Source of the DNA: Patescibacteria group bacterium
GTDB lineage: Bacteria > Patescibacteriota > Minisyncoccia > Phycocordibacterales > UBA1550
Length of the DNA stretch: 64,000 nucleotides
NCBI GenBank assembly: GCA_038057125.1
Contig: JBBUDU010000002.1
Coordinates: 85,240-149,239 of the forward strand
Direction of reading: 5' to 3'
A program made the translations under genes and the position numbers. Of the stretch, positions 2,333 through 28,568 are shown piece by piece. The first letter of the stretch is position 1. Every line of letters begins with the position of its first letter. A model generated the notes under the pieces. That model made no database searches. It was not told the DNA's origin and was given only the letters and a program-made list of their open reading frames with translations.

Positions 2333-3405
2333 GTTTTATAGATTTTCTTCTCCCCACTCGGCAGTTCATACTGCAGTTCGGTATCGGAGAGCCACTCGGG
2401 TTTAAACCAGAATATAGGTTCATTTGTTGTTTCTATGAGTTTTTTTTCTTTTGTAAAAAGGTTATAGAGATAGAGAATTGATTTTTTGCCTTCCCGCTTA
2501 TGTTGTTCTTTTAATTCTTGGTCGAATTCAACATCTCCTGTCCAAACCTGTCCTGGCTGAATTGGGAGATAACCGGTATTAACATTGAGCGGAGAACCAC
2601 CCATAGCGCCGTTCGGCGCTTCAAATATCTCAGCTTTCCAATTTTGAGTATCTATCCTGAAGTAGCCGTTAACATAGGCGCCGTCAAAAATATCACCCCA
2701 GAAGTATCTGCTGTCATCTGTCCACGTATCAAAACCGAAACTTCCTGCCATATTTGGATATTGATCAAAGGTTGATTTTGCCGACAAAACAAAGACGTCT
2801 TTCAGGGTTTTGAGGTCTTTGATGATGAGTGCGTAGTCATCCTGACCGAGGTAACCTTTCTCGAGGGCGATATATTGTTCAAGCGGGGAGACGCGGAAGG
2901 TGGGGGAATAGTTATTGTTATTAAGATTATCTTCTTTTCCAAAATCAAACAAAACCATCAATAATTTCCCTCCTTCATTATTATAACCGTACTGCCACAA
3001 TTCGCCTCTATAATTTGGTAATGGTAATCCTTTTCCGTTATCATAATTAAAATCTTGAATAAAATAAACACCACATTTATGTAATTCCATAGGGTACGCA
3101 GAATCTCGAACATTATTAATTCGAAAGCTCTTAATTGCCACTCCTGTGTTTCTATTTTTTACAAAAATCAGCGGAGACCTTTCTTTAGGCTGAGTAATCT
3201 CTGGGAACAAGCTCGCACGATCATAATCGGCTATTTCATTTTCTTCTAGACATCCGTTTGGTGATAATTCCTTTTGTGTAACTTGCGTTTGATTGTTGTT
3301 TGCTTGACTAGCTGGTTTTTTTGAAAAGACAGAATAAATAACGCTTGCACCAATAACAAACAGAGCGACAACAAGAATACTCAAGATTGTAGTTTTTCTG
3401 CTCAT
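2320..3405 (-). CDS. membrane-anchored hypothetical protein, paralog A
   Basis: 361 aa with an N-terminal TM anchor. Full-length similarity to the 3689-4762 product, with shared blocks FRVSP.EQYIAL.KGY, IIKD.KTLKDVFVL and WLSDTELQYELP.GEKKIYK.NEK. Confidence 0.7.
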   Translation of the reverse strand: MSRKTTILSILVVALFVIGASVIYSVFSKKPASQANNNQTQVTQKELSPNGCLEENEIADYDRASLFPEITQPKERSPLIFVKNRNTGVAIKSFRINNVRDSAYPMELHKCGVYFIQDFNYDNGKGLPLPNYRGELWQYGYNNEGGKLLMVLFDFGKEDNLNNNNYSPTFRVSPLEQYIALEKGYLGQDDYALIIKDLKTLKDVFVLSAKSTFDQYPNMAGSFGFDTWTDDSRYFWGDIFDGAYVNGYFRIDTQNWKAEIFEAPNGAMGGSPLNVNTGYLPIQPGQVWTGDVEFDQELKEQHKREGKKSILYLYNLFTKEKKLIETTNEPIFWFKPEWLSDTELQYELPSGEKKIYKTNEK

Positions 3406-16031: not shown

Positions 16032-17564
16032 ATGGACATTAACATTGCACTCACGCTCGGCGGCGTGATGGCAATTCTGGTCGGTGCGACACTTGGCTAT
16101 CTTTTGCGCTGGTTTATCGCAATCAGCAAACGCGGATCAGTCGAAATTGAAGTAAAACAAGTCTTACTTTCCGCAAAAGAAGAGGCCCAAAAAATTACTG
16201 AAGAAGCCGACCGAAGAGCCGAAGTATACGGGCGCGAACTCCATGAAGAAGAGCGCGAACAATCTGAGCGCTTCAAAAAAACCGAGGAGCGCCTCATCAA
16301 AAAAGAGGGATTCCTCGACAAGCGTCAGGAAGATATTGACAAGGAGACAGCGCATATAAAAGAGAGGGATGATGAAATCAGGCTCATCCGTGAAAAAACC
16401 AACAAAGAGAAAGAGTTTGCGCACAAAGAGCTCGAGCGTATTGCGCGACTGAGTGCTATGGACGCAGTAGAGGAGCTCATCAAGCGCGCCGAGAAGCTTT
16501 ACGAAGAGGATATTTCGGTTCGAATAAAAAAAATTGAAACAGGTGGAGAAGAGAGGCTCGCACAAAAAGCGCGGGACATTCTCGCCACTTCGATTCAACG
16601 CCTTGCTACGTCAACAGCATCAGAAATGATGGCAACATCTGTCTCCATTGCTTCAGACGAAATAAAGGGGAAAATTATTGGTAAAGAAGGCAGAAATATC
16701 AGAGCTTTTGAGCGTGCAGCTGGCGTAGAGGTTATTGTTGACGATACTCCTGGTTCGATTCTCATCTCATCGTTTGACCCTATTCGGCGACAAGTTGCGC
16801 GTGTTGCGCTTGAGGAGCTCATCGCTGATGGGCGCATTCAACCTGCAAGAATCGAGGAAACGGTAGAAAAAGCGCGAGGAGAAATAAACAAAATAACGAA
16901 AGAACGAGGGGAGCAGGCGGCATACGAATGCGGTGTGTTCAACCTTGACCCGCGTATCATTGCAATCCTCGGGCGCCTCCATTTCCGCACGAGTTATGGG
17001 CAAAACGTACTCCAGCATTCGATTGAAATGGCGCATATTTCGGGAATAATCGCCGAGGAGCTTGGAGCAAATGTTGCTGTCGCGAAAGCTGGAGCGCTCC
17101 TTCACGACCTTGGGAAAGCGGTTGATCACGAAGTACAGGGTACCCATGTTGAAATTGGTCGTAGGATCCTGCAAAAGTTTGGCGTAGATACACGCATCAT
17201 TCAAGCAATGCAATCACATCACGAGGAATACCCTTATGAAACAATTGAATCAATTATTGTACAGACCGCTGACTCGATTTCTGGTGGCCGGCCGGGGGCT
17301 CGCCGTGATTCTGCGGAAAATTATATAGACCGCCTCAAGGACCTAGAAGCGATAGCAAAATCCTTCCCTGCCGTCGAAAAAACCTATGCAATTCAAGCCG
17401 GAAGAGAGCTTCGTGTATTTGTGAAGCCTGAAGAAATCACAGACATTGAAGCAAAGAAACTTGCGCGCGACATTGCAATGCGTGTTGAAAAGGAACTTAA
17501 ATATCCGGGTGAAATAAAAGTAGCGGTCATTCGCGAGTCACGGGCGATTGAGTACGCAAGATAG
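16032..17564 (+). CDS. rny: ribonuclease Y
   Basis: 510 aa with an N-terminal TM, coiled coil, KH motif (IGKEGRNIRAFE) and HD domain (LLHDLGK). Confidence 0.92.
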   Translation: MDINIALTLGGVMAILVGATLGYLLRWFIAISKRGSVEIEVKQVLLSAKEEAQKITEEADRRAEVYGRELHEEEREQSERFKKTEERLIKKEGFLDKRQEDIDKETAHIKERDDEIRLIREKTNKEKEFAHKELERIARLSAMDAVEELIKRAEKLYEEDISVRIKKIETGGEERLAQKARDILATSIQRLATSTASEMMATSVSIASDEIKGKIIGKEGRNIRAFERAAGVEVIVDDTPGSILISSFDPIRRQVARVALEELIADGRIQPARIEETVEKARGEINKITKERGEQAAYECGVFNLDPRIIAILGRLHFRTSYGQNVLQHSIEMAHISGIIAEELGANVAVAKAGALLHDLGKAVDHEVQGTHVEIGRRILQKFGVDTRIIQAMQSHHEEYPYETIESIIVQTADSISGGRPGARRDSAENYIDRLKDLEAIAKSFPAVEKTYAIQAGRELRVFVKPEEITDIEAKKLARDIAMRVEKELKYPGEIKVAVIRESRAIEYAR

Positions 17565-17623
17565 AATAAAATTACGAAACAATTTTCGAATCTTGACAAT
17601 ATTCCCAAAAATCCTTGCGCCTA

Positions 17624-17652
17624 TTGCGTAAAAAAACCTGTGGGGGTATACT
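17624..17652 (+). promoter_or_regulatory. candidate promoter of hup (TTGCGT-N17-TATACT, G5 run abutting the -10)
   Basis: TTGCGT at 17624-17629, a 17-nt spacer ending GGGGG, TATACT at 17647-17652. Same architecture as at 43857-43885. Confidence 0.4.
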
Positions 17653-17748
17653 TGTCTGCAAGGGAGCTTGGGTACACCTTTGCGCCCGAGTAACTCACTG
17701 AAGTTTTAGTATTACAAGAATTAAAAGAGGCGTTAATAAAATATCATT

Positions 17749-18021
17749 ATGAACAAAGCAGCTATCGCTGAAATTATTCACGAGAAGATGGGAGGGACCA
17801 AAGTATCTGCAGAGCAGACACTTGACGCAATCCTTGAAGGGATGGTAAGCACCTTGAAGAAAGGTGGAGAAGTGTCAATCGCAGGACTCGGTATCTTTTC
17901 TACAAAGGCTCGCGCAGCCCGCACAGCGCGTAACCCAAAAACTGGTGAGGCTATTCAAGTAAAAGCAACAACAGTTCCAAAGTTTCGTGCCGCAAAGGCG
18001 CTCAAGGACGCAGTGAAGTAA
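17749..18021 (+). CDS. hup: DNA-binding protein HU
   Basis: 90 aa HU/IHF fold sequence (GLGIFSTKARAARTARNPKTGE). Confidence 0.9.
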   Translation: MNKAAIAEIIHEKMGGTKVSAEQTLDAILEGMVSTLKKGGEVSIAGLGIFSTKARAARTARNPKTGEAIQVKATTVPKFRAAKALKDAVK

Positions 18022-18039
18022 AGACTGCTACTCCAAAAG

Positions 18040-18075
18040 AAAACCGAGCCTCCTATGGAGGCTCGGTTTTCTTTT
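18040..18075 (+). terminator. rho-independent terminator after hup
   Basis: AAAACCGAGCCTCC-TAT-GGAGGCTCGGTTTT followed by CTTTT. Confidence 0.8.
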
Positions 18076-18078
18076 GGG

Positions 18079-18235
18079 TGCGGGATGGGCTCTCGGTCAC
18101 GAGTTACTAAGTGTGCTCGTGTGAGTACACACTGCGCGCACTAAGTACTCTCGACCCCGCCTCACTGTCGCAGAGCGACATGTTCCGGCTTTCGATTCTC
18201 CACGCAAGGCGCGCAGGCGTCTTGCTCATCCCGCA
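18079..18235. other. tRNA-end-bounded structured element, Gly locus unit A (157 nt)
   Basis: - Starts TGCGGGATGGG, the same as the 3' end of the tRNA-Gly(UCC) gene in plus coordinates.
- Ends ATCCCGCA, the inverted complement of that start.
- First 81 nt are identical to unit B.
- Contains a long imperfect hairpin and the blocks TCGGTCACGA, TCTCGACCCCG and CTTTCGATT. Confidence 0.6.
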
Positions 18236-18237
18236 CA

Positions 18238-18279
18238 ATGTAAAAATCCCCAGACCGAAACGGTTGGGGATTTTTACAT
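18238..18279. terminator. 15-bp-stem hairpin separating units A and B
   Basis: ATGTAAAAATCCCCA / TGGGGATTTTTACAT, symmetric with A/T runs on both sides. Confidence 0.55.
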
Positions 18280-18281
18280 TG

Positions 18282-18418
18282 TGCGGGATGGGCTCTCGGT
18301 CACGAGTTACTAAGTGTGCTCGTGTGAGTACACACTGCGCGCACTAAGTACTCTCGACCCCGGCTCGCCTCTTCGCTACGCTCAGTATGGCTCCGCCTTT
18401 CGATTCTCCCATCCCGCT
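18282..18418. other. tRNA-end-bounded structured element, Gly locus unit B (137 nt)
   Basis: The 5' GCGGGATGGG pairs with the 3' CCCATCCCGC. The right end TTCGATTCTCCCATCCCGC is an inverted copy of the tRNA-Gly(UCC) T-loop, T-stem and acceptor 3' strand. Confidence 0.6.
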
Positions 18419-18430
18419 ACAAAATGCAAC

Positions 18431-18456
18431 AACGCCGAAGTTTTCACTTCGGCGTT
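18431..18456 (-). terminator. hairpin immediately 3' of tRNA-Gly(UCC)
   Basis: AACGCCGAAGT / ACTTCGGCGTT stem. Confidence 0.5.
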
Positions 18457-18465
18457 GGCATTTTG

Positions 18466-18536
18466 TGCGGGATGGGAGAATCGAACTCCCGCCAAGAGTT
18501 TGGAAAACTCCTATTCTACCATTAAACTAATCCCGC
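18466..18536 (-). tRNA. tRNA-Gly (anticodon UCC)
   Basis: Hand-folded 71 nt: acceptor GCGGGAT/ATCCCGC, D arm GTTT-AATGGTA-GAAT, anticodon arm GGAGT-TTTCCAA-ACTCT, T arm GGGAG-TTCGATT-CTCCC. CCA is not encoded. Confidence 0.9.
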
Positions 18537-18636
18537 GATTAAAACCTCTCAAGACAATAGCAAAAGCACAGATGTTTCGCAAATATGTCCCCAAAACATC
18601 TGTACTACTACATACTACGACTGAAAGCCTGCCACT

Positions 18637-19521
18637 CTACCCAACAATCGATCGCACCTTCGTCACGATCTCGTCAAGCGTGAAGTTTGCCTTTACCATA
18701 AAGTCTTTTGCTCCAAGCGCCATTGCTTTATCGAGGTCTTCTTTCTGACCAAGGTTGCTCAAAATAACAACGGGAACGTCCATAATCTTTGGATCTGCTT
18801 TAATCCGCGCAAGAATTTCAAATCCATCTGTGCCGGGTAAAATAAGGTCACAGAGAATCATATTTGGCTTACGCTCAGACAAAATTGCAAACGCCGCCAC
18901 TGCGTCAATTGCGTTTTGAACATCAAACCCCTCACTCGCAAGCTTGCGCACCAAAAGCTCGCGCAAAAATTTGTCATCCTCAATAACAAGGATAAACTTT
19001 TTTTTGCCACCAGTTGATGGTGTTGTAACATCTGTCACGCCTTGCGACATTTTATAGACTGGGGCCTCTGCCACGGCTTCTGAAACCCCTGAGCTGTTTA
19101 CATTTTGTGTGCGCACACCCCATTCCCCTCTAGGAGCCGCGGCAACTCCTCCGAGTACGCGCTCTACTTTTTCAAGGACTTCGTTTGGGTCAAACACTGC
19201 TTTGATCAAAAATTCTCGCGCGCCAAGCTCTTGTGCTCGCTTTATCTCCACTGGTTGACCGGAATTTGAAATAATAATAACTGGAATATCGCGAAGTGTT
19301 GGATCTGCATGTATCTCTTCCAATACCTCAATACCACCCTTGCGCGGCATAAGGATATCCAAGAGCACGCAATCAGGCCTGACGGCGCGAATCTTTTCTA
19401 TGGCGACAATACCGTCCTCTGCTATGTCCACAACATAACCGCTCTTTTCAAGTTTTTGTGCAAGGACATCACGGAGTACCGCGTCGTCTTCCACAATGAT
19501 AATTCTTTTTTTCTCTTCCAT
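18637..19521 (-). CDS. response regulator with two receiver domains and no output domain
   Basis: Two REC modules (IIIVEDDAVLRD...VLLDILMPRKGG and ILVIEDDKFLRE...ILCDLILPGTDG). Confidence 0.85.
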   Translation of the reverse strand: MEEKKRIIIVEDDAVLRDVLAQKLEKSGYVVDIAEDGIVAIEKIRAVRPDCVLLDILMPRKGGIEVLEEIHADPTLRDIPVIIISNSGQPVEIKRAQELGAREFLIKAVFDPNEVLEKVERVLGGVAAAPRGEWGVRTQNVNSSGVSEAVAEAPVYKMSQGVTDVTTPSTGGKKKFILVIEDDKFLRELLVRKLASEGFDVQNAIDAVAAFAILSERKPNMILCDLILPGTDGFEILARIKADPKIMDVPVVILSNLGQKEDLDKAMALGAKDFMVKANFTLDEIVTKVRSIVG

Positions 19522-19612
19522 GATGATTCTGTGTTATTGAGGGTACTATTATTATAGTATAAAATTGATGTCTACGCTATCAAATTAACCTTCTGTATTA
19601 CTCCTGATCGCA

Positions 19613-21517
19613 TCATATGTTCTCTTTTTCTACCGCTTTTACCAACTCTCTTGGTAAAAGTTTTGCGATGACCGGAACCACAATAGTAAACGTTGTGCCT
19701 CCCCCCTCCACTGAATCAACCCAAATTTGCCCACCGTGTCTCATAATGATACTTTTCACGATAAACAAACCGAGTCCGGAGCCATCTGTTTGCAAGTGAA
19801 TAACGTTTGAGGCACGGAAGAATTTTGAAAACAGTTTCGCTATGTCTGCCTTTGGAATACCGACTCCGGAGTCGCTTACTTTCACTTCTACGAAGTCCCC
19901 TTTCTTTTCAACAGCTATCGTAACTTTCCCACCGGGCAATGTGTACTTCATCGCATTGTCAACGATGTTTTGAAAAGCAATAAGAAGTTTCTCGGGATCG
20001 AATGAAAAGTTATGAATATCTCCTGCGTGATTCACAAACTGTACTTCAACATTGCGCTCCTTTGAAGGGAGCTCTGTGTTTTCAACGAGGGTATTCAAGA
20101 GCTTCATAAAATCATTCTCTTCAAAATTATAACCAAACATTCCATTCTCAATACGCGAAACATTCAAGAGGTCGTTCACCAACTGAATCATTTTTTCGTT
20201 CGTCTCATACCCGCGCTTTAGCATCCCCTTTTGGTCATCATTTATTGCACCCAAATCCCCGTCGAGCAGAAGCTTGAGCACCCATTTTACGCCAGAAAGC
20301 GGCGTGCGGAGCTGATGCGCAGCTATGGAAATAAAATCAGACTTCAGTCTGTCAATCTCGCCCAAGTTTACCACCATCGAGTTGAACACATCTCCAAACT
20401 GCCCAATCTCATCGTTTGAGGTATGTTCTACTTTTTGACTAAGGTCTCCATCCGCAATCTTTCGCGCAACAAATGAATATCGTCGAATAGGCCCCACTAC
20501 TTGTCGTTCAAGGATTATCGAGAGCACAATCACGAGTATAGATGTAAAGACAACGCCGACACCGAGCAACCGGACACGAAATCCGCTGACACGGTTCTCA
20601 TAAGCGCTCTTCAATAAATGAGACTCCGACACGCCGACGATGCGAGAACCTTTTGCATTTTCAATCTTTATTGGTTTCACATACACGACAACCTCGTGTC
20701 CTTCGTGAATGCGTTCGTATTGCATGCTTTCTTTCGCTCCGGTCGCTATGTCGCGACGCGCTTGTATTTGTTCTTGGGTATCATTATCAAATTTTCTTGC
20801 GCCTTGTCCCATGTTTGCGAGAACATTAAGACTCGTATCGAGGACGACAAAATCGTGAAAAAACCCAAATTCGTCAGTTTTATTTATTTTCCCAAGCTGA
20901 GAAGCATCGTCAATAATTTTTTGCAGATACTGTGATCCGTCCTCAATTGCAATGTTTATTGCTCGTGTACTTTGCTCGACACTGGCTGAAGCAAGGTCTA
21001 GTAAACGTCTTGCCTCCAAAACGTCTTGCGAACTCTTAGACCTAGTCTTTACCTCTGTTTCAATAATATTAATAATATTATTATTGCCATCAAAAACTGG
21101 TGCGTAATGTTCAATCCTGTAATAATTTTCGTTTGTATTTGTTTTTGAAACAACCGCCTTGTTTTTAACAACCTCATTAATGGCCGCAAGTTTTGCCGCT
21201 ATGTCTTGCGGTGCGTCGCTTGAACGGGTTGTGGCAACATCAACTCCCTTTGTATCCAAAACTTCTATGTAGTTTACTCCGGAGATACGGCTTGCAAGTG
21301 TGTCTACAATCTCTTGAAGCGATCCCTTCTGTGCCGAAATCTGCGTAAACATACGTTCTACGTCTTTACGAACCAAATCTGTAACAGTACTGGTGTTGTT
21401 GATAACTTCGGTTTTTATATTTTTTGACTCAATTGTATCAATGATCCAAAATCCAAGAGTAAGAATGGTAACGACGACCACAACGAGCACAAGATTTATT
21501 TTTGTACCAAGCTTCAT
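19613..21517 (-). CDS. sensor histidine kinase (TM-sensor-TM-HAMP-HisKA-HATPase)
   Basis: HAMP (IADGDLSQKVEHTSNDEIGQF), H-box SIAAHQLRTPL, ATP-binding DSGVGIP / GSGLGLFIVKSI. Confidence 0.88.
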   Translation of the reverse strand: MKLGTKINLVLVVVVVTILTLGFWIIDTIESKNIKTEVINNTSTVTDLVRKDVERMFTQISAQKGSLQEIVDTLASRISGVNYIEVLDTKGVDVATTRSSDAPQDIAAKLAAINEVVKNKAVVSKTNTNENYYRIEHYAPVFDGNNNIINIIETEVKTRSKSSQDVLEARRLLDLASASVEQSTRAINIAIEDGSQYLQKIIDDASQLGKINKTDEFGFFHDFVVLDTSLNVLANMGQGARKFDNDTQEQIQARRDIATGAKESMQYERIHEGHEVVVYVKPIKIENAKGSRIVGVSESHLLKSAYENRVSGFRVRLLGVGVVFTSILVIVLSIILERQVVGPIRRYSFVARKIADGDLSQKVEHTSNDEIGQFGDVFNSMVVNLGEIDRLKSDFISIAAHQLRTPLSGVKWVLKLLLDGDLGAINDDQKGMLKRGYETNEKMIQLVNDLLNVSRIENGMFGYNFEENDFMKLLNTLVENTELPSKERNVEVQFVNHAGDIHNFSFDPEKLLIAFQNIVDNAMKYTLPGGKVTIAVEKKGDFVEVKVSDSGVGIPKADIAKLFSKFFRASNVIHLQTDGSGLGLFIVKSIIMRHGGQIWVDSVEGGGTTFTIVVPVIAKLLPRELVKAVEKENI

Positions 21518-21576
21518 ATTACTTTACAGTATACACCACTAATGGAGAAAAATGATTGGTGACATGTGGAGAATTG

Positions 21577-21668
21577 TGCCCTCATGAGGAGTCTGCCAAG
21601 CGCTCGCTCGACCCGTTTTGTTAAACGGGTAAACCCGAGCTCACTTTCGACTCCTCGTTCGCGCTACA
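21577..21668. other. degenerate tRNA-end-derived element next to tRNA-Arg(CCG)
   Basis: Starts with a 17-nt copy (TGCCCTCATGAGGAGTC) of the tRNA-Arg(CCG) 3' end. Contains GCGCTCGCTCGACCC, a hairpin ACCCGTTT-TGTT-AAACGGGT, and an inverted T-loop copy TTTCGACTCCTC. There is no closing acceptor complement. Confidence 0.45.
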
Positions 21669-21712
21669 AAAACATACTCCAAAAATGCTTCGCATTTGTT
21701 TCGTTCTTTTTG

Positions 21713-21784
21713 TGCCCTCATGAGGAGTCGAACCTCAATTACAAGCTTCGGAAGCTTGTGTCCTATCCGTTGAACGATAAGGGC
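21713..21784 (-). tRNA. tRNA-Arg (anticodon CCG)
   Basis: Hand-folded 72 nt: acceptor GCCCTTA/TGAGGGC, anticodon arm CAAGC-TTCCGAA-GCTTG, T arm TGAGG-TTCGACT-CCTCA. Confidence 0.88.
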
Positions 21785-21835
21785 TTTTTGGTACTGTGGT
21801 CCGTTGTACCACGAGCGCAGGTTTGGAAAAGTAGA

Positions 21836-22915
21836 CTAATTAATCTCAATGTCGATATGCCGCACCGTGGGTATTTCTTTTTTAATCCGCGCCTCAAGCT
21901 CGTCGATGCGCGTACCGATAACGCGCGGCACACGATCGGTAAACTCCACGCAAAAGCGCACAAACTCCTGATAGTCCTCTTTTGCGATTTCATAATCCTC
22001 TTTTAGCATTACACCATTTGAAACTTCTCGAAAAAGAGCCGAGCCATTTATCTCCACCTCGCACTTTGCTCGATATTTTCCAAGCTCCACGACAGATGAT
22101 TTAAAATCGTACACACGCTCAATCATTGGGTCAGATACGAGCATTTCAATAATACGATCTTTCACTTCTTCAGGAATTGATTTCTCCACTAAAAAACGTT
22201 TATTTTTTAATATCAAAACTACCGCGACCCAAGCCAAAAGCCCGCCGATAACAATAGAACCCATTGCGTCCCAAACAGGGTTGCCGGTAACGTACGAGAG
22301 TCCGACAGAAACAGTGGCGACAAAAATGCCAAATACAGCAACACCATCTTCATACACAACAGCAAGAACCGTCGGGTCGCCATCGCGAAGCGTGTCGCCA
22401 AGCGTTGTCCCGTCCCCTCTCTGGCTCCGCAATTCACGAAATGCAATCAAAAATGTAATAAGCTCAACAATAAACGAAATTGCAAGAATAAAAAATATTA
22501 TCGGTTCAAACACAAGCTCACTTGGACTAAAGAGTGTTGAAACACCGTGGTATATAGTAATACCGGCGCCTACAAAGAAAACTCCGCAGGCTGAAATAAG
22601 CGCCCAAAAGAAACGTTCTAGTCCGTATCCATAAGAAGAGTCCTCGTCTGGAGCACGACGGCTCTTCACAATACCAACCATCAGAAGCGCTTGATTGGCC
22701 GTGTCTGCAAAACTATGCACGGCCTCAGAAAAAAGAGAGCTCGACCCTGAGATGGCAAAACCAATGGTTTTAAGGATCGTAATAACAAAATTACCCAAAA
22801 GTGCCGCAATAACTGAAACAAAGCCGGGCTCACGTCTGTGGATAACTGACGATTTACCAAATTTCATGGCTTGGCCATGAATTATTCCACTATTAAGTTT
22901 TTCTTTTTTCTTCAT
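21836..22915 (-). CDS. cation diffusion facilitator (CDF) family transporter
   Basis: 359 aa with six TM helices, a HSFADTANQ motif in TM2, and a C-terminal cytoplasmic domain. Confidence 0.85.
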   Translation of the reverse strand: MKKKEKLNSGIIHGQAMKFGKSSVIHRREPGFVSVIAALLGNFVITILKTIGFAISGSSSLFSEAVHSFADTANQALLMVGIVKSRRAPDEDSSYGYGLERFFWALISACGVFFVGAGITIYHGVSTLFSPSELVFEPIIFFILAISFIVELITFLIAFRELRSQRGDGTTLGDTLRDGDPTVLAVVYEDGVAVFGIFVATVSVGLSYVTGNPVWDAMGSIVIGGLLAWVAVVLILKNKRFLVEKSIPEEVKDRIIEMLVSDPMIERVYDFKSSVVELGKYRAKCEVEINGSALFREVSNGVMLKEDYEIAKEDYQEFVRFCVEFTDRVPRVIGTRIDELEARIKKEIPTVRHIDIEIN

Positions 22916-22950
22916 ACATCGCTCTTACGAGCTCTTCCGGTTAAAGCCCT

Positions 22951-23123
22951 TGTCGGGGTGCCCTATGTCCAAGACAAGATTCTACTGAATCTGAATCCCC
23001 GCCTGCCACCGCCCAAAGTTACATAAGTAAAATACAACACCGCCATTTATATTCCAACTGTTTGTAGTATTGAAACTAACCCAATTTGCGGTTAGGCTTT
23101 GGCGGGCAGGGAACTCGGCCTAT
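22951..23123 (-). pseudogene. tRNA-Pro 3'-part pseudo-copy interrupted in the T-loop
   Basis: TGTCGGGGTGCC (22951-22962) and GAACTCGGCCTAT (23111-23123) are exact copies of 23259-23270 and 23278-23290. They are separated by 148 nt instead of 7 nt. Confidence 0.55.
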
Positions 23124-23260
23124 TTTGACGAGAGAGGAGCGTGTGGAAGTGTACCCACTTACACAACGTCCGAGCGATGTTAAAATATTGTACCCGTTAT
23201 ATCTAAATTTCTTATGGAAATTTCCACGGAAGCATCCAATGCTTCCGATTAAAAACTGTG

Positions 23261-23331
23261 TCGGGGTGCCGAGAATCGAACTCGGCCTATCTGCTCCCAA
23301 AGCAGACGTACTACCGATATACTACACCCCG
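23261..23331 (-). tRNA. tRNA-Pro (anticodon UGG)
   Basis: Hand-folded 71 nt: acceptor CGGGGTG/CACCCCG, anticodon arm TCTGC-TTTGGGA-GCAGA, T arm CCGAG-TTCGATT-CTCGG. Confidence 0.88.
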
Positions 23332-23344
23332 ACACAATTTTTAA

Positions 23345-23460
23345 TCCCAAAGCAGACGTACTACCGATATATAACTGAATACAATATATTCTGCGCTCGC
23401 TCGGAAATTAAAACTTGCTAGTTTTATTTCGCTCACTCGCTTGAATATACTACACCCCGA
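23345..23460 (-). pseudogene. tRNA-Pro 5'-half pseudo-copy with a 73-nt insertion in the D-loop
   Basis: A 27-nt exact copy (23345-23371 = 23295-23321) and a 16-nt exact copy (23445-23460 = 23317-23332). ATATA is present on both sides of the insert but only once in the intact gene. Confidence 0.6.
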
Positions 23461-23508
23461 TTTAAACTGTAAGTCATATCTTTAGTCTCGCGTGAAACCG
23501 TTACGGAA

Positions 23509-23991
23509 CTATAGCACGATATTATCTAAAAATCTAATGCGCGCTCGTCGATTTTTTGCGTCAATCTCCACCGTAATAGCATCAAAAATCCATTCAGGCT
23601 CCCCTTTTGGGTACTTTTCAAGCAAGTAAACTTGAATTGTCCGTGCCAGTCTCTTCAGTTTATGCTGGTGAATGTTATCTTCTGGTCGATAACTGTCCGT
23701 TACTGAATTAGCAAATTCTGAGTCAGCAGACTTCACGCCTGGGGCGCAGACCCTTGGGCGCAGGGAAACATTCACCTTATTACATAGGTCCGACCTATGT
23801 AAATTTTCACGTGAAACACTTTTTACCTCAATAAAATGGAGGATTTTACCTTTTTTGGCAATAATATCGATTTCCCCACATTTTTTAAGATAATTTTGCC
23901 CAATTACTAAAAACCCCTTATTTTGTAAGTATTTTACGGCAATATCCTCCCCCAAACGCCCTATTTTCTGCTTTTCTGTAGGTTCAGCCAT
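23509..23991 (-). CDS. yraN: YraN-family (UPF0102) endonuclease-like protein with ~35-aa internal extra segment
   Basis: GRLGEDIAVKYL...CGEIDIIAKKGKILHFIEVKS ... FDAITVEID. The track start is a TTG; the ATG at 23991 is preferred. Confidence 0.75.
   Translation of the reverse strand: MAEPTEKQKIGRLGEDIAVKYLQNKGFLVIGQNYLKKCGEIDIIAKKGKILHFIEVKSVSRENLHRSDLCNKVNVSLRPRVCAPGVKSADSEFANSVTDSYRPEDNIHQHKLKRLARTIQVYLLEKYPKGEPEWIFDAITVEIDAKNRRARIRFLDNIVL
23803..23818. promoter_or_regulatory. parS-like site (14/16 to TGTTTCACGTGAAACA) inside yraN
   Basis: ATTTTCACGTGAAACA; its palindromic core encodes VSRE in the yraN frame. Confidence 0.4.
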
Positions 23992-24038
23992 TACTACACA
24001 ATTATACCCAATGTTCAATGATTAACATAAAAAGAGTG

Positions 24039-24054
24039 TATTTCACGTGAAACA
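24039..24054. promoter_or_regulatory. parS-like site (15/16 to consensus)
   Basis: TATTTCACGTGAAACA, intergenic, upstream of yraN. Confidence 0.6.
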
Positions 24055-24359
24055 CCTCGTTTTTAGACTATATTTAGGTCGAAAACAAGCATTTTTCTAA
24101 AAACTCCATATTTATCAAGGGTTTCTTGGGTTTTAGGTGACAATTTTCCAATGTCTTGAATCTTAGTCTACTGGCTTTTTATGTCCTTTATCAACAGTAT
24201 CCACATAGTTATCCACAGTTTTGAGCTTTTTTCCCCATATTTTCCCGCTTCTGACCGTTGACAGGCTGTGTCAGAATAGTGGTTTTTGTGAAAAATGTCC
24301 TTTACAAAAAACTTATTGTACTGGTGCGGCTCTCGATAACGAACAATTGATTTTTTATT

Positions 24360-24433
24360 TGGTGCGGGTACGGAGAATCGAACTCCGATCTCGTCCTTGG
24401 CAAGGACGCGTTCTACCACTAAACCATACCCGC
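24360..24433 (-). tRNA. tRNA-Gly (anticodon GCC), CCA encoded
   Basis: Hand-folded: acceptor GCGGGTA/TACCCGC, anticodon arm CGTCC-TTGCCAA-GGACG, T arm CGGAG-TTCGATT-CTCCG, 3' ACCA. Confidence 0.9.
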
Positions 24434-24477
24434 AAACTTTCTCAACCATTATACATTTTTTTTATCTTTTTGGAAGA

Positions 24478-24618
24478 GCGCCCGGAGGGATCGGTCACGA
24501 ATATTTTTCTTGTCGTCACAAGAAAAATTTCTCGACCCCGACTCGCCCGTTTTTTCTGCTGAAAAAACATGGCTCCGTCTTTCGATTTACTCACGCGAGC
24601 TTTGCTCGCTCGGGCGCA
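24478..24618. other. tRNA-end-bounded structured element, Arg(UCG) locus (141 nt)
   Basis: The 5' GCGCCCG... pairs with ...CGGGCGC at the 3' end; these are direct and inverted copies of the tRNA-Arg(UCG) 3' end. It shares the blocks TCGGTCACGA, TCTCGACCCCG, CTCGCC, ATGGCTCCG and CTTTCGATT with Gly unit B. The hairpins between the blocks differ in sequence. Confidence 0.6.
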
Positions 24619-24620
24619 GA

Positions 24621-24654
24621 AATAATAAAAACCCCATCAGGGGTTTTTATTATT
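24621..24654 (-). terminator. hairpin between tRNA-Arg(UCG) and the element
   Basis: AATAATAAAAACCCC-ATCA-GGGGTTTTTATTATT. Confidence 0.6.
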
Positions 24655-24656
24655 TG

Positions 24657-24729
24657 TGCGCCCGGAGGGAATCGAACCCCCAACCCCTTGGTTCGAAGCC
24701 AAGTACTCTATCCGTTGAGCTACGGGCGC
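24657..24729 (-). tRNA. tRNA-Arg (anticodon UCG)
   Basis: Hand-folded 73 nt: acceptor GCGCCCG/CGGGCGC, anticodon arm CTTGG-CTTCGAA-CCAAG, T arm GGGGG-TTCGATT-CCCTC. Confidence 0.9.
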
Positions 24730-24818
24730 AAAAATTTGACAGGTTTCTCGTGAAACCTACACAGAGAGCATACCGCAAATTGGTAAAAAAGCCAAAAATA
24801 CACTAGACTATAACCTAT

Positions 24819-26309
24819 ATGATAGGCGCTTCAATAAAAACGAATATCTCGTACAAAATCCCTAAAGAAGTTTCACATGTAACCGAAACCTTGCGAAATG
24901 CAGGGTTTGAGGCGTATCTTGTGGGTGGATGCGTGCGCGACATCTTGCAGGAAATCAAGCCAAAAGACTGGGACGCAACAACAAACGCAACACCGGAACA
25001 AATCCAAGCCCTTTTTGAAAATTCTTTTTACGAAAACGATTACGGAACAGTTGGTATAGTAAATGAAACAGATGATGAAACACTTAAGGTTGTTGAAGTA
25101 ACTCCGTACCGAAGCGAAGGCGCATACACTGACAAGCGACGCCCGGATAGCGTTTCGTTTCACGGGAAACTAGACGAGGATCTAAAACGTCGCGATTTCA
25201 CAATTAACGCAATAGCGTATGATGAATCTAAAGGACATCTAACGGACATGTTTGGTGGTATAAAGGACATAAAGGACAAAGTCTTAAGGACAGTAGGGGA
25301 TCCAAGAGAACGCTTCAACGAAGATGCCCTCCGTGTCCTTCGCGCCGTGCGCCTTGCTACCGATCTTGGTTTCACGATTGAGATAGAGACTCAAAATGCA
25401 CTCACTGAAAAAGCTTCAGACCTGAAACATGTCTCTATGGAGCGTATTCGTGATGAATTCACCAAAATGGTAATGACAAAAAATCCAATGGTTGGCATTG
25501 TAATGTGCCAGAAACTTGGCATCCTTAAATATATTGCGCCGGATATCGAACGTGGGATTGGCATTGAGCAAAATGGCGACCATATTTACACCGTATGGGA
25601 ACACAACCTCCGCGCGCTCCAGCACTCGGCAGACCGTGGATGGCCGCTCCATGTACGACTCGGAGCGCTCTTTCATGATGTTTCAAAACCGGAAACACGA
25701 CGCTGGTCTCCCGAAAAAGACGACTGGACCTTTTATGGTCACGACGTAGTTGGCGGACGTGTTGCAAAAAAAGCTCTGGAAAATTTAAAATATCCTAAAA
25801 AAATCGTTGAGGTTGTGTCCGCGCTTGTGCGTTATCATTTGTTTTTCTCTGATATCGAAAAAATTACGCTTTCTGCGGTACGTCGTATTGTAAAAAACGT
25901 CGGACCTGACAATGTTTGGGACTTGATGAAAGTTCGAGCGTGCGACCGTATCGGCATGGGTCGTCCAAAAGAAGCGCCGTATCGTTTGCGTAAATATGAA
26001 TCAATGATTGATGAGGCGATGCGCGCGCCGGTGTCTGTGGGAATGCTCAAAATTGACGGGCAAAAAATAATGGAAGTTACCCATGAAACACCGGGGCCAA
26101 AACTCGGTTTTATCCTCCACGCGCTCCTCGAAGAAGTGCTTGATGACCCGGAGCGCAACACGGAAGTTTTTCTCGTGAAACGAACACTCGAACTCGCAAA
26201 ACTTCCGATTGATGAATTAAAAAAACTGGGGGAGGAAGGTAAGGAGAAAAAAGAAGAGGAAGAGGAAAAAGAGCTCGCTGTGATTCGCAAGCGTCATGGA
26301 GTAAAGTAA
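24819..26309 (+). CDS. cca: CCA-adding enzyme / poly(A) polymerase family nucleotidyltransferase with HD domain
   Basis: LVGGCVRD, RRDFTINA, HD motif FHDVSKP. Lys/Glu-rich C-terminal tail. Confidence 0.88.
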   Translation: MIGASIKTNISYKIPKEVSHVTETLRNAGFEAYLVGGCVRDILQEIKPKDWDATTNATPEQIQALFENSFYENDYGTVGIVNETDDETLKVVEVTPYRSEGAYTDKRRPDSVSFHGKLDEDLKRRDFTINAIAYDESKGHLTDMFGGIKDIKDKVLRTVGDPRERFNEDALRVLRAVRLATDLGFTIEIETQNALTEKASDLKHVSMERIRDEFTKMVMTKNPMVGIVMCQKLGILKYIAPDIERGIGIEQNGDHIYTVWEHNLRALQHSADRGWPLHVRLGALFHDVSKPETRRWSPEKDDWTFYGHDVVGGRVAKKALENLKYPKKIVEVVSALVRYHLFFSDIEKITLSAVRRIVKNVGPDNVWDLMKVRACDRIGMGRPKEAPYRLRKYESMIDEAMRAPVSVGMLKIDGQKIMEVTHETPGPKLGFILHALLEEVLDDPERNTEVFLVKRTLELAKLPIDELKKLGEEGKEKKEEEEEKELAVIRKRHGVK

Positions 26310-27569: not shown

Positions 27570-28505
27570 TTACCTCCCTTTACCATGAAACTTTTTATGC
27601 ACATTACGAAGCTCACTATCGGTGATGTGGGTATAAATTTGCGTTGTGGAAATGCTTGAATGACCGAGCATCATTTGCACCGAGCGAATATCCGCGCCAT
27701 TGAAAAGCAAGTCAGTTGCAAAACTGTGACGCAAAATGTGAGGTGTAACCTTATCCATAATGCCGGCTTTTGCGGCGTAGAATTTTACCATACGTTCTAC
27801 CGAGCGAGGACTGAGACGAAGTGAACCGTCATCGCGACCACGCTTCATTTCACTCACAAAGAGCGCATCATCCATGTCGGTTCTCTTTTTTAAGTATGCG
27901 TTAATTGCTTTCTTTGCTACGTCTGCAATAAACACAACGCGTACTTTTTCACCCTTACCGCGCACAGATATTTCGTCGCGGCTTAGGTCAATGTCACGTC
28001 CGAGCGCGCACAATTCTGAAAGACGAAGCCCTGTGGAAAAGAAAAGTTCGAGGATTGCTTTATCGCGAAGCTCTTTTATATCGTCGCCATTGGGCGCATC
28101 GAGAAGTCGTCTCAAATCCTCTCCAGTCAGAAGGTCAATCGTACGCTCGGCAACTTTTGCGAGTTCAATTTTTTCCGGAGCATAAGACTCAATTCCACGC
28201 TTGCGCAAATACTTCAAAAAACTTCGAATGGCGATGAGATAATAATTTTGTGTTTTCTTTTTGAGTGTTTCATGGCGACCTTCACGAACGCCTGCGTCTT
28301 GGCGGTTAAGCCACAATCTAAAAGAGCGTATGACATCGTCTGTAATATCACTTGGCTTTTTTGCGCCGCTTGCCATAAAAAAGCGAACGAGGTATCGTTC
28401 ATAGTTCTCAATGGTTTTTAAACTCCGCCCGCGCTCGATTTCCAAATATTCTAAATATTGTCGTGCGAGTGTGCCAAGGGGAGAGGATGGAATATTGTGC
28501 GACAT
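27570..28505 (-). CDS. tyrosine recombinase, XerC/XerD-like
   Basis: HILRHSFATDLL, LGHSSISTTQIYTH. The ATG at 28505 is preferred over the GTG at 28523. Confidence 0.85.
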   Translation of the reverse strand: MSHNIPSSPLGTLARQYLEYLEIERGRSLKTIENYERYLVRFFMASGAKKPSDITDDVIRSFRLWLNRQDAGVREGRHETLKKKTQNYYLIAIRSFLKYLRKRGIESYAPEKIELAKVAERTIDLLTGEDLRRLLDAPNGDDIKELRDKAILELFFSTGLRLSELCALGRDIDLSRDEISVRGKGEKVRVVFIADVAKKAINAYLKKRTDMDDALFVSEMKRGRDDGSLRLSPRSVERMVKFYAAKAGIMDKVTPHILRHSFATDLLFNGADIRSVQMMLGHSSISTTQIYTHITDSELRNVHKKFHGKGR

Positions 28506-28568
28506 GTAAATACAGTATACCACCGTAGACTACTAGCAAAAACGTTTCATCTACGCTAGAATCTTCTT

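Follow-up and report, generated by a model that had tools for sequence, protein, structure and literature searches.

The non-coding segment located behind the tRNA-Arg(CCG) gene in a 64 kb stretch of DNA from a Patescibacteria group bacterium (64,000 nucleotides of contig JBBUDU010000002.1, in the following ‘the window’) belongs to a family of approximately 130–150 nucleotide (nt) non-coding elements that are found just 3' of transfer RNA (tRNA) and transfer-messenger RNA (tmRNA) genes of Parcubacteria (Candidate Phyla Radiation, CPR), and on the same strand as these genes. The names used here for this family, ‘tRNA-tail elements’, and for its principal core, ‘core type A’, were coined in the course of this analysis. 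Members were expected approximately 50–150 nt behind a tRNA or tmRNA gene, without a change of strand and with a hairpin in between. Judged from its sequence, the Arg(CCG) copy is a degenerate derivative of a core type A element without the status of an intact member, and it is probably inactive. For the family as a whole we favour, at a probability of roughly 0.45, a non-autonomous cassette that would use the duplicated 3' end of the tRNA for recombination and would fold in single-stranded form.

All coordinates refer to the plus strand of the window, and tRNA-Arg(CCG) and its element are read on the minus strand, on which all five tRNA genes detected by ARAGORN in the 64 kb are located. The tRNA-Arg(CCG) gene (21712–21784, minus strand; 57.5 bits with the Rfam tRNA model) has the acceptor strands GCCCTTA/TGAGGGC and the T arm TGAGG-TTCGACT-CCTCA, and does not encode CCA. 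It is followed by a 40 nt spacer (21672–21711, minus strand) with the short hairpin AAATGC-GAA-GCATTT, which an earlier reading made from the letters of the window alone (the sequence-only reading) had correctly placed right after the gene. This hairpin is nested in an imperfect outer CAAAAA...TTTTTG pairing, whose arms are part of a 26 nt inverted repeat, and is the counterpart of a terminator-like hairpin present in the full copies. Next, on the minus strand, come X', an imperfect inverted copy of the tRNA 3' end delimited by inverted repeats and allele comparison (21646–21671), a reduced core of 52 nt (21594–21645) and X, an exact 20 nt direct copy of the same 3' end (21574–21593). X takes in part of the T loop and the 3' strands of both the T stem and the acceptor stem, and it runs over the discriminator into the trailer. 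The direct repeat, TTGTGCCCTCATGAGGAGTC, is identical at 20 of 20 positions between 21574–21593 and 21710–21729, and the exact 17 nt copy of the tRNA 3' end described earlier is real and forms the core of this longer repeat, which reaches 3 nt into the trailer. As only about 0.002 such 20-mer repeats are expected in 64 kb by our own arithmetic, chance is excluded as its origin. Only 116 nt, without any open reading frame (ORF), lie between the two repeats.

The inverted copy of this tRNA's own T-loop variant, likewise reported earlier, proved to be exact over 11 nt: the first 11 nt of X', GAGGAGTCGAA in minus-strand reading (21646–21656), complement the T loop and the T-stem 3' strand of tRNA-Arg(CCG) without a mismatch. 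The same stretch, given as TTCGACTCCTC, pairs with 21586–21593 to form the exact 8 bp closing stem of the segment (GAGGAGUC/GACUCCUC), and the inverted repeat continues imperfectly over 26 nt (21646–21671) with 73% complementarity. The statement that the segment lacks the acceptor complement held only in part. The acceptor portion of X', GCGCGAA, indeed shows no match to the acceptor stem of the present tRNA, but it approximates the complement of the GCGCTCG/GCGCCCG-type acceptors of tRNA-Arg(CCG) in relatives (alleles of the related loci L146, L001 and L003 were compared), and thus the acceptor complement of another allele is carried instead. X' is probably a mosaic that dates back to a former tRNA-Arg(CCG) allele of the locus. 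The reduced core, delimited by covariance-model alignment, fold and inverted repeat, consists of AAAGUGAGC, an 8 bp hairpin (arms 21611–21618 and 21623–21630, as had been noticed), CGGGUCGAG and CGAGCGAGCGC (21600–21610), with a fold of −41.4 kcal/mol (z −4.1). The string GCGCTCGCTCG, at 21600–21610, occurs a second time at 23393–23403, within the tRNA-Pro pseudo-copy insert in which its recurrence had been pointed out; with one mismatch allowed there were six matches as against 0.69 expected, and none of 100 shuffles reached six.

Whether these parts amount to a member of the family was assessed with a covariance model built from 38 full copies and run over the whole window with filters off, the E-values of which are rough. 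The Arg(CCG) segment (21584–21657) scored 18.7 bits (rough E of about 0.002), fourth in the window behind three full copies, and no other match exceeded 12.1 bits. The model alignment retained the inner part of the closing stem P1, UCGAAAG, GAGC and CGG-GUCGAG, whereas 43 positions of the long hairpin P3 (its distal part) and the 3' half of the short hairpin P2 were gone. P3 is thus reduced to approximately 7 bp (CGGGUCGAG...CGCUUGGC) and lacks the CUUAG/CUUAG motif, and at the P2 junction UCGAAAG and GAGC are there, while CGAG-NC, the 3' half of the loop, is missing. The copy lies at 21671–21574, on the same strand as the tRNA that ends at 21712 and with a hairpin in between, and its ends carry the 8 bp X':X stem and the 20 nt direct repeat characteristic of the family; the long P3 (GGGUCGAGAGUACUUAG...CUUAGUAACUCGUGACC) was not found in it. 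We filed the copy as degenerate and not as intact because its P3 has lost the 43 model positions and CUUAG/CUUAG. The earlier proposal of a degenerate copy of the same element is therefore borne out by the model score and by the shared stem and junction motifs.

The opposite reading takes the segment for ordinary spacer and terminator which resemble the full elements by chance. Several observations speak for it and weigh against membership: the inner 50 nt showed no similarity to the family by nhmmer (E up to 10) or BLAST, the motif pair AGTGAGC...CGAGCGAGCGC is shared with only one other place in the genome, the insert of the tRNA-Pro pseudo-copy, and the 18.7 bits are owed in part to a generic hairpin in a model whose E-values are rough. 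On the other hand, a 20 nt direct repeat and an 11 nt inverted T-arm copy, both exact, occur within 140 nt, the segment is the fourth-best model match in the window, and its position, strand and layout are those of the full copies. Recognizable family members are, moreover, present at orthologous loci, a comparison that the sequence-only reading had proposed as a check: L009 carries a full variant (42.9 bits), and in L149, the nearest of the relatives that share the present tRNA allele, the element has a P3 truncated in its 3' half. L001 and L004 have units with a second core (‘type B’), and L002, L003 and L146 have no element at this locus. The chance reading is very improbable and is refuted by the model scores, the alignment and the repeats.

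Three full copies are present in the window, all on the minus strand. E1 (18282–18417; 92.7 bits, fold z −5.9) is located behind tRNA-Gly(UCC), E2 (18079–18234; 96.8 bits) is in tandem with E1 and bears an extra hairpin, P1a, at the boundary between acceptor and T stem, and E3 (24478–24617; 51.5 bits, fold z −6.0) follows tRNA-Arg(UCG). The order within each unit is terminator-like hairpin, X', conserved core and X. Full copies fold far better than shuffled sequences (z of about −6), and of the two strands the tRNA-sense one gives the better fold. A search of 17500–25500 with Rfam 15 (E up to 5), whose families include tRNA-like RNAs, tmRNA, self-cleaving ribozymes and RNAs associated with retrons and insertion sequences (IS), gave convincing matches only to the five tRNAs; the others were spurious microRNA-type hairpins far below gathering scores. 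tmRNA, Y-RNA-like RNA and RNase P RNA were ruled out by sequence, with ARAGORN and Rfam silent, and self-cleaving ribozymes (hammerhead, hepatitis delta virus-like, twister and others), of interest here since they can occur behind tRNAs, gave no model match, their conserved cores being absent.

Beyond the window, at least 120 metagenome stretches matched the conserved P3 pattern. For 86 of the 123 matches listed, a tRNA gene of the same orientation lay no more than 600 nt upstream, in most cases at a distance of 75–140 nt, and the specificities of these tRNAs covered all 20 amino acids except Ile; most of the other listed matches were at contig ends or inside tandem arrays. Four further matches (L052, L060, L109 and L135) follow apparent tmRNA 3' ends, which were read by eye, as ARAGORN was run for tRNAs only and made no calls, and in these the inverted block includes the complement of the genomic CCA. 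In related loci, all 16 of 16 model matches were on the strand of the tRNA. The flanking cation-efflux gene identified the window as Candidatus Yonathbacteria-like Parcubacteria, and eleven syntenic loci share its tRNA cluster; their tRNA 3' flanks carry the same element type, variants of it, type B units or no element. Hairpin families and P3 tips are common to elements behind different tRNAs. Two tandem arrays were also observed: in L083 (approximately 2800–3300) P3 recurs every 240 nt or so with no tRNA nearby, and in L087 (13500–14000) X runs straight into the next X' without a hairpin between them.

The breadth of this distribution bears on the possibility that the units are attachment-site scars, that is, random remnants left between repeats after the deletion of integrase-carrying islands or prophages. 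Direct repeats of the 3' end that begin in the T loop and stop shortly beyond the gene are reportedly the classic mark left by integration into tRNA and tmRNA genes, and the 35 nt duplicates at the tRNA-Pro locus of relatives as well as the replaced tRNA allele at the Arg(CCG) locus (see below) would fit such a history. What lies between the repeats, however, is a conserved and covarying structure in at least 120 places, simple integration makes no inverted copy of a tRNA end, and the P3 pattern had no match in viral contigs, phage records or plasmid records. We consider scars improbable, and the conserved core largely refutes them. An integrase-mediated island at the Arg(CCG) locus itself was rejected as well: the direct repeat is present, but there is no integrase or cargo between its copies.

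The ends of the elements are those of the neighbouring tRNA gene. X is a direct copy of tRNA positions 56–74 or thereabouts, usually starting at C56 or G57 and ending one to three bases past the gene; it measured at least 15 nt in 25 of 83 copies, and a direct repeat extending 5 nt or more beyond the tRNA end was found in only five of the 83. X' is the Watson–Crick complement of tRNA positions 54–73, at times split by a conserved hairpin. Among metagenome copies, X' follows the local T loop through the pairs AATCGAA/TTCGATT, ATTCGAA/TTCGAAT, ATTTGAA/TTCAAAT, AATTGAA/TTCAATT and ACTCGAA/TTCGAGT, and GCTCGAA is a further variant which tracks the local T loop. For positions at which the acceptor or T stem of the tRNA contains a G-U pair or a mismatch, X' agreed 14 times with the Watson–Crick complement of the 3' strand and once with the 5' strand of the tRNA itself. 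These two sets of observations uphold, well beyond the window, the earlier claim that the local tRNA is the source of the T-loop-like block. X' further extends to the discriminator, and it contains a complement to CCA only if the genome encodes this CCA; X' and X were therefore taken from the gene and not from the mature tRNA. As X' follows the 3'-strand complement, the unit is not a tRNA duplicate from which the middle was removed.

Several other origins of the ends were considered and rejected. Reverse transcription from a mature tRNA is at odds with the lack of TGG before X' unless CCA is genomic and with the continuation of X' into the trailer, and a duplicated tRNA gene with a deleted body is at odds with the strand which X' follows. 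A fold-back duplication of the original flank does not agree with the scarcity of copies that extend 5 nt or more past the tRNA, nor with a hairpin that comes with the insert. Ligation at TCGA restriction sites was dismissed as the right junction reads CCGA. A miniature inverted-repeat transposable element was dismissed as well, since the terminal inverted repeats vary by copy and equal the local tRNA end, and no autonomous relative was present in the loci examined.

When paired, X' and X form a stem of up to 16–20 bp that consists of acceptor stem, T stem and four T-loop pairs, and thereby reproduces the acceptor–T helix of the neighbouring tRNA, with the core sitting on top. In many copies a hairpin, AGCAAG..CUGC..CUUGCGU, splits X' exactly at the boundary of acceptor and T stem, and in several genomes a conserved purine-rich variant, GAGAGC, replaces the T part of X. 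P2 is a short hairpin with a three-pair base, in which GGA or GCA stands opposite GA in an internal loop (GNA/GA); its middle pair was C-G in 27, G-C in 22, U-A in seven and A-U in 21 of 78 copies, with one mismatch, and the GA of the 3' loop was retained in 77 of 78. The lower half of P3, which contains a G-U pair, one A/G and one U/U mismatch and a bulged A, is nearly invariant, and the tip of P3 is variable. In the alignment of 38 sequences the named structure was paired in 91% of cells, and the strand-specific G-U pair of P3 was present in 38 of 38. The covariation score was 0.242 as compared with 0.113 in shuffles, none of 500 of which reached 0.242, and controls with slid partners did not exceed 0.072. 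An ungapped count of G-U versus A-C in the tip of P3 was uninformative owing to register errors. Since covariation surpasses both the shuffles and the slid controls and the tRNA-sense strand folds better, the fold is under selection on the tRNA-sense strand, a result that fits RNA and single-stranded DNA alike. The heptamers GCGAAGC and GCGTAGC recur at the hairpin tips of many copies (e.g. at 18370–18385) and at the 3' end of type B. GCGAAGC forms an unusually stable DNA mini-hairpin, and such tips may hint at a fold that forms in single-stranded DNA.

A selected fold would equally be expected of genes for small RNAs, and this explanation, although it falls short of an even chance, was graded nearly as likely as the cassette. 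The elements would then be tRNA-like small-RNA genes, transcribed by read-through from the tRNA promoter or from an unrecognized promoter, cut by RNase P and RNase Z, for which the X':X stem would look like the acceptor–T minihelix, and perhaps CCA-tailed, whose conserved three-way junction binds a protein or serves a host function; local gene conversion and compensatory change would keep the match to the tRNA, and the Arg(CCG) copy would be a pseudogene. The CCA-adding enzyme is encoded in the window at 24819–26309. Strong covariation together with invariant unpaired nucleotides, the strand-specific G-U pair in P3 and the better fold of the tRNA-sense strand, an orientation that is always that of the tRNA, an extra hairpin exactly where the body of a tRNA branches from the acceptor–T stack and the conserved purine-rich stem variant all argue for such an RNA, as do tandem arrays that look like tRNA operons and the persistence of the tRNA-Gly(UCC) copy, with its fold kept, in the window and in L003, whose flanking protein is 81% identical. 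Yet a terminator-like hairpin with a U tract usually stands between tRNA and element and arrives with the element, and a promoter scan of the sequences between tRNAs and elements found no promoter-like site. Whole units are present in one strain and absent from a near-identical one, as would be unusual if the RNA were needed, and X' is a perfect complement despite G-U pairs in the tRNA and reaches the discriminator and the trailer, which points to copying at the DNA level. Several unrelated core types, finally, share the same platform.

Turnover between strains was most evident from the comparison with strain L146/L147, whose flanking genes, the efflux gene among them, are 99% identical to those of the window and which differs from it in three places, all of them tRNA 3' flanks. 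At the Arg(CCG) locus, L146 (4081–4228) carries a different, intact tRNA-Arg(CCG) allele, and the present tRNA and its element are absent. The first 19 nt of that allele (GCGCTCG type) persist in the window as a 5' fragment, GCGCTCGTGGTACAACGGA, at 21800–21818 (minus strand, from the alignment with L146), directly ahead of the present tRNA; the window and L146 also have the downstream flank CAATTCTCC in common. This alignment indicates that the whole tRNA allele has been swapped. Behind tRNA-Gly(GCC), L146 (approximately 1370–1545) carries a 172 nt type B unit bounded by the 15 nt direct repeat TCTCCGTACCCGCAC, for which 24360–24375 of the window is a clean empty site. A hairpin comes along with this unit, and CCAAAT, the original flank, stays next to the distal repeat. 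The type B core, GGGGTCGGGGAA...GTGGAGGAA...ATAGCGAAGCGT, was also found in L001 and L004. The third difference is in the hairpin behind tRNA-Arg(UCG). Near-identical strains thus differ by whole units, and units are gained or lost whole via the repeated tRNA end. The orientation of tRNA-Gly(GCC) is opposite to that of its neighbours in L002, L003, L009 and L011; in L009 the element is turned around with the gene, and tRNA and tail therefore move as one block.

On the cassette reading, a unit would enter and leave by recombination inside the duplicated segment from the T loop to the 3' end. A segment of this kind is also what tyrosine-integrase islands duplicate upon integration at the T loop of a tRNA gene. 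The proximal X would arrive together with the hairpin, the distal X would retain the original flank, and the conserved fold would represent a single-stranded form, either a folded recombination site in single-stranded DNA or a read-through RNA, recognized by a factor acting in trans; by analogy with integron attC sites and the attP hairpin of CTX phage, the X':X stem together with the core would be the folded form that is recognized. A number of points weigh against this proposal. No transposase, integrase or reverse transcriptase was found beside any copy, and a Pfam scan of 27 of the approximately 60 ORFs of the window revealed no transposase and, as the only recombinase, a Xer-like tyrosine recombinase (Phage_integrase and SAM-like N-terminal domains; 27570–28523, minus strand), which is located approximately 3 kb from the tRNA cluster and 6 kb from the Arg(CCG) locus and is probably a housekeeping enzyme. 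The weak point is that a fixed cassette alone cannot explain ends X' and X that match all tRNA specificities, so that some step of retargeting or copying must be postulated. P1a, always placed at the boundary of acceptor and T stem, looks like tRNA mimicry at the RNA level, the GAGAGC variant looks like selection at the RNA level, and in orthologous copies (E2 of the window and that of L003) the fold has survived changes on either side, which has an RNA-level look as well.

Each of several known systems shares some of these properties. Tyrosine-integrase islands and prophages likewise show a direct repeat of the 3' part of the tRNA, from the T loop to just past the end, target tmRNA genes too, and provide the gene with a new 3' end from the incoming DNA while the old one is pushed distally. 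They differ from the elements described here, which are units of approximately 130–200 nt without integrase or cargo, carry the segment in inverted form too, together with a conserved structured core, and place one core family behind nearly all tRNA specificities with ends that match each of them. Integron attC sites and the attP hairpin of CTX phage, acted upon by XerCD, also have inverted arms about 100 nt apart that fold on one strand and mimic the target, a strand-specific structure with unpaired bases and G-T pairs, cassette behaviour and tandem arrays. Here, in contrast, no IntI-type or other dedicated recombinase was found, recombination of a single strand is what we infer, and the arms are the local tRNA end instead of a fixed consensus.

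MALAT1 mascRNA, the tRNA-microRNAs of gammaherpesvirus 68 and the tRNA-small nucleolar RNA dicistrons of plants resemble the elements in having an acceptor–T type helix on an RNA that is not a tRNA, a helix that would permit cuts by RNase P and RNase Z, and in their placement beside or behind real tRNAs. These are, however, found in eukaryotes or viruses, possess a genuine T loop and show no copying of a neighbouring tRNA's sequence, whereas the elements have a three-way junction in place of the T loop and usually a terminator-like hairpin ahead. REP/BIME, Correia, Rickettsia palindromic and IS200/IS605-derived palindromic elements are also short, non-coding, multi-copy, hairpin-rich and intergenic, often lie near terminators and vary in presence by strain, but have fixed ends and no dependence on tRNA genes. 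We know of no miniature repeat that carries both orientations of its target's sequence. The tyrT gene of Escherichia coli is followed by 178 bp repeats, each of which ends in 19 nt of the tRNA-Tyr 3' end. These are likewise tandem units behind a tRNA gene with a direct 3'-end copy in each, but they are confined to one locus in one species and have no inverted copy and no structured core common to different tRNAs. A retron non-coding RNA resembles the elements in its layout of closing stem, short hairpin and long hairpin only, and was rejected as the neighbouring genes encode a histidine kinase and a cation efflux protein and no reverse transcriptase is among them. An IS200/IS605 right-end (omega) guide RNA or palindromic derivative would go with a TnpA or TnpB gene elsewhere in the genome and have ends in common with that IS; none of the 27 ORFs scanned encodes a transposase. 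A group IIC intron or an IS110 bridge RNA would have the wrong size, and the defining motifs are absent; TIGR-Tas arrays surfaced in the literature and are unrelated.

Other small insertions were observed at and near the tRNA cluster. At 22950–23460 of the window (minus strand), the tRNA-Pro gene has partial copies of itself on both sides: upstream, a 5' pseudo-copy is interrupted by a 73 nt insert, and downstream, a 3' copy is cut at TTC|GA of the T loop by the palindromic insert CCTGCCCGCC...GGCAGGCGGG. In relatives (L003, L004, L006 and L009), the tRNA-Pro loci contain 35 nt 3'-end duplicates with or without inserts. The YraN/UPF0102 gene (23509–24018, minus strand) is approximately 50 residues longer than the Pfam domain suggests, owing to an in-frame insert at approximately 23690–23770. 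This extra stretch contains a small palindromic repeat, CAGAATTTGCTNATTC, found again in L002, L004 and L005, and resembles the in-frame palindromic elements of the Rickettsia type; a related palindrome, GAATCAGCTGATTC/GAATCAGCAGATTTG, occurs within the tRNA-tail elements of L004, L006, L009 and L122.

No description of tRNA-tail elements was found in the literature. The pieces are known, namely the duplication of tRNA 3' ends, folded recombination sites, tRNA-like handles and miniature repeats; their combination is not known, with one structured core behind nearly all tRNAs and tmRNA, framed by inverted and direct copies of the local 3' end. We tentatively suggest that a dedicated companion molecule lies behind many tRNA genes and the tmRNA gene of Parcubacteria, with a closing stem that replicates the acceptor–T arm of the respective tRNA base for base and a conserved three-way junction at its tip, being either a tRNA-specific small RNA of a new class or a new kind of mobile element that rewrites its ends. 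As a small RNA, it may be a processed minihelix mimic that receives a CCA tail or is even charged, or it may sense the 3' half of the tRNA or serve as its decoy; as a mobile element, it may have both ends rewritten, one inverted and one direct, to match the tRNA gene entered. The Arg(CCG) copy is in this sense a fossil, which points to the family and in whose mosaic inverted block an earlier allele at the locus would be recorded. If the family is what it seems to be, the tRNA 3' flanks of this large group of ultra-small and mostly uncultured bacteria host a structured element that copies the 3' end of its neighbour in both directions, which raises the mechanistic question of how the ends are matched to each tRNA. 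Its units would then also give rise to false tRNA fragments, long palindromes and structural variation between strains right at tRNA genes, with effects on the annotation and assembly of CPR genomes. An element acting as RNA would be a new tRNA mimic in organisms with a reduced RNA-processing machinery, and one acting at the DNA level would represent a new route by which a tiny cassette can use tRNA genes as landing sites.

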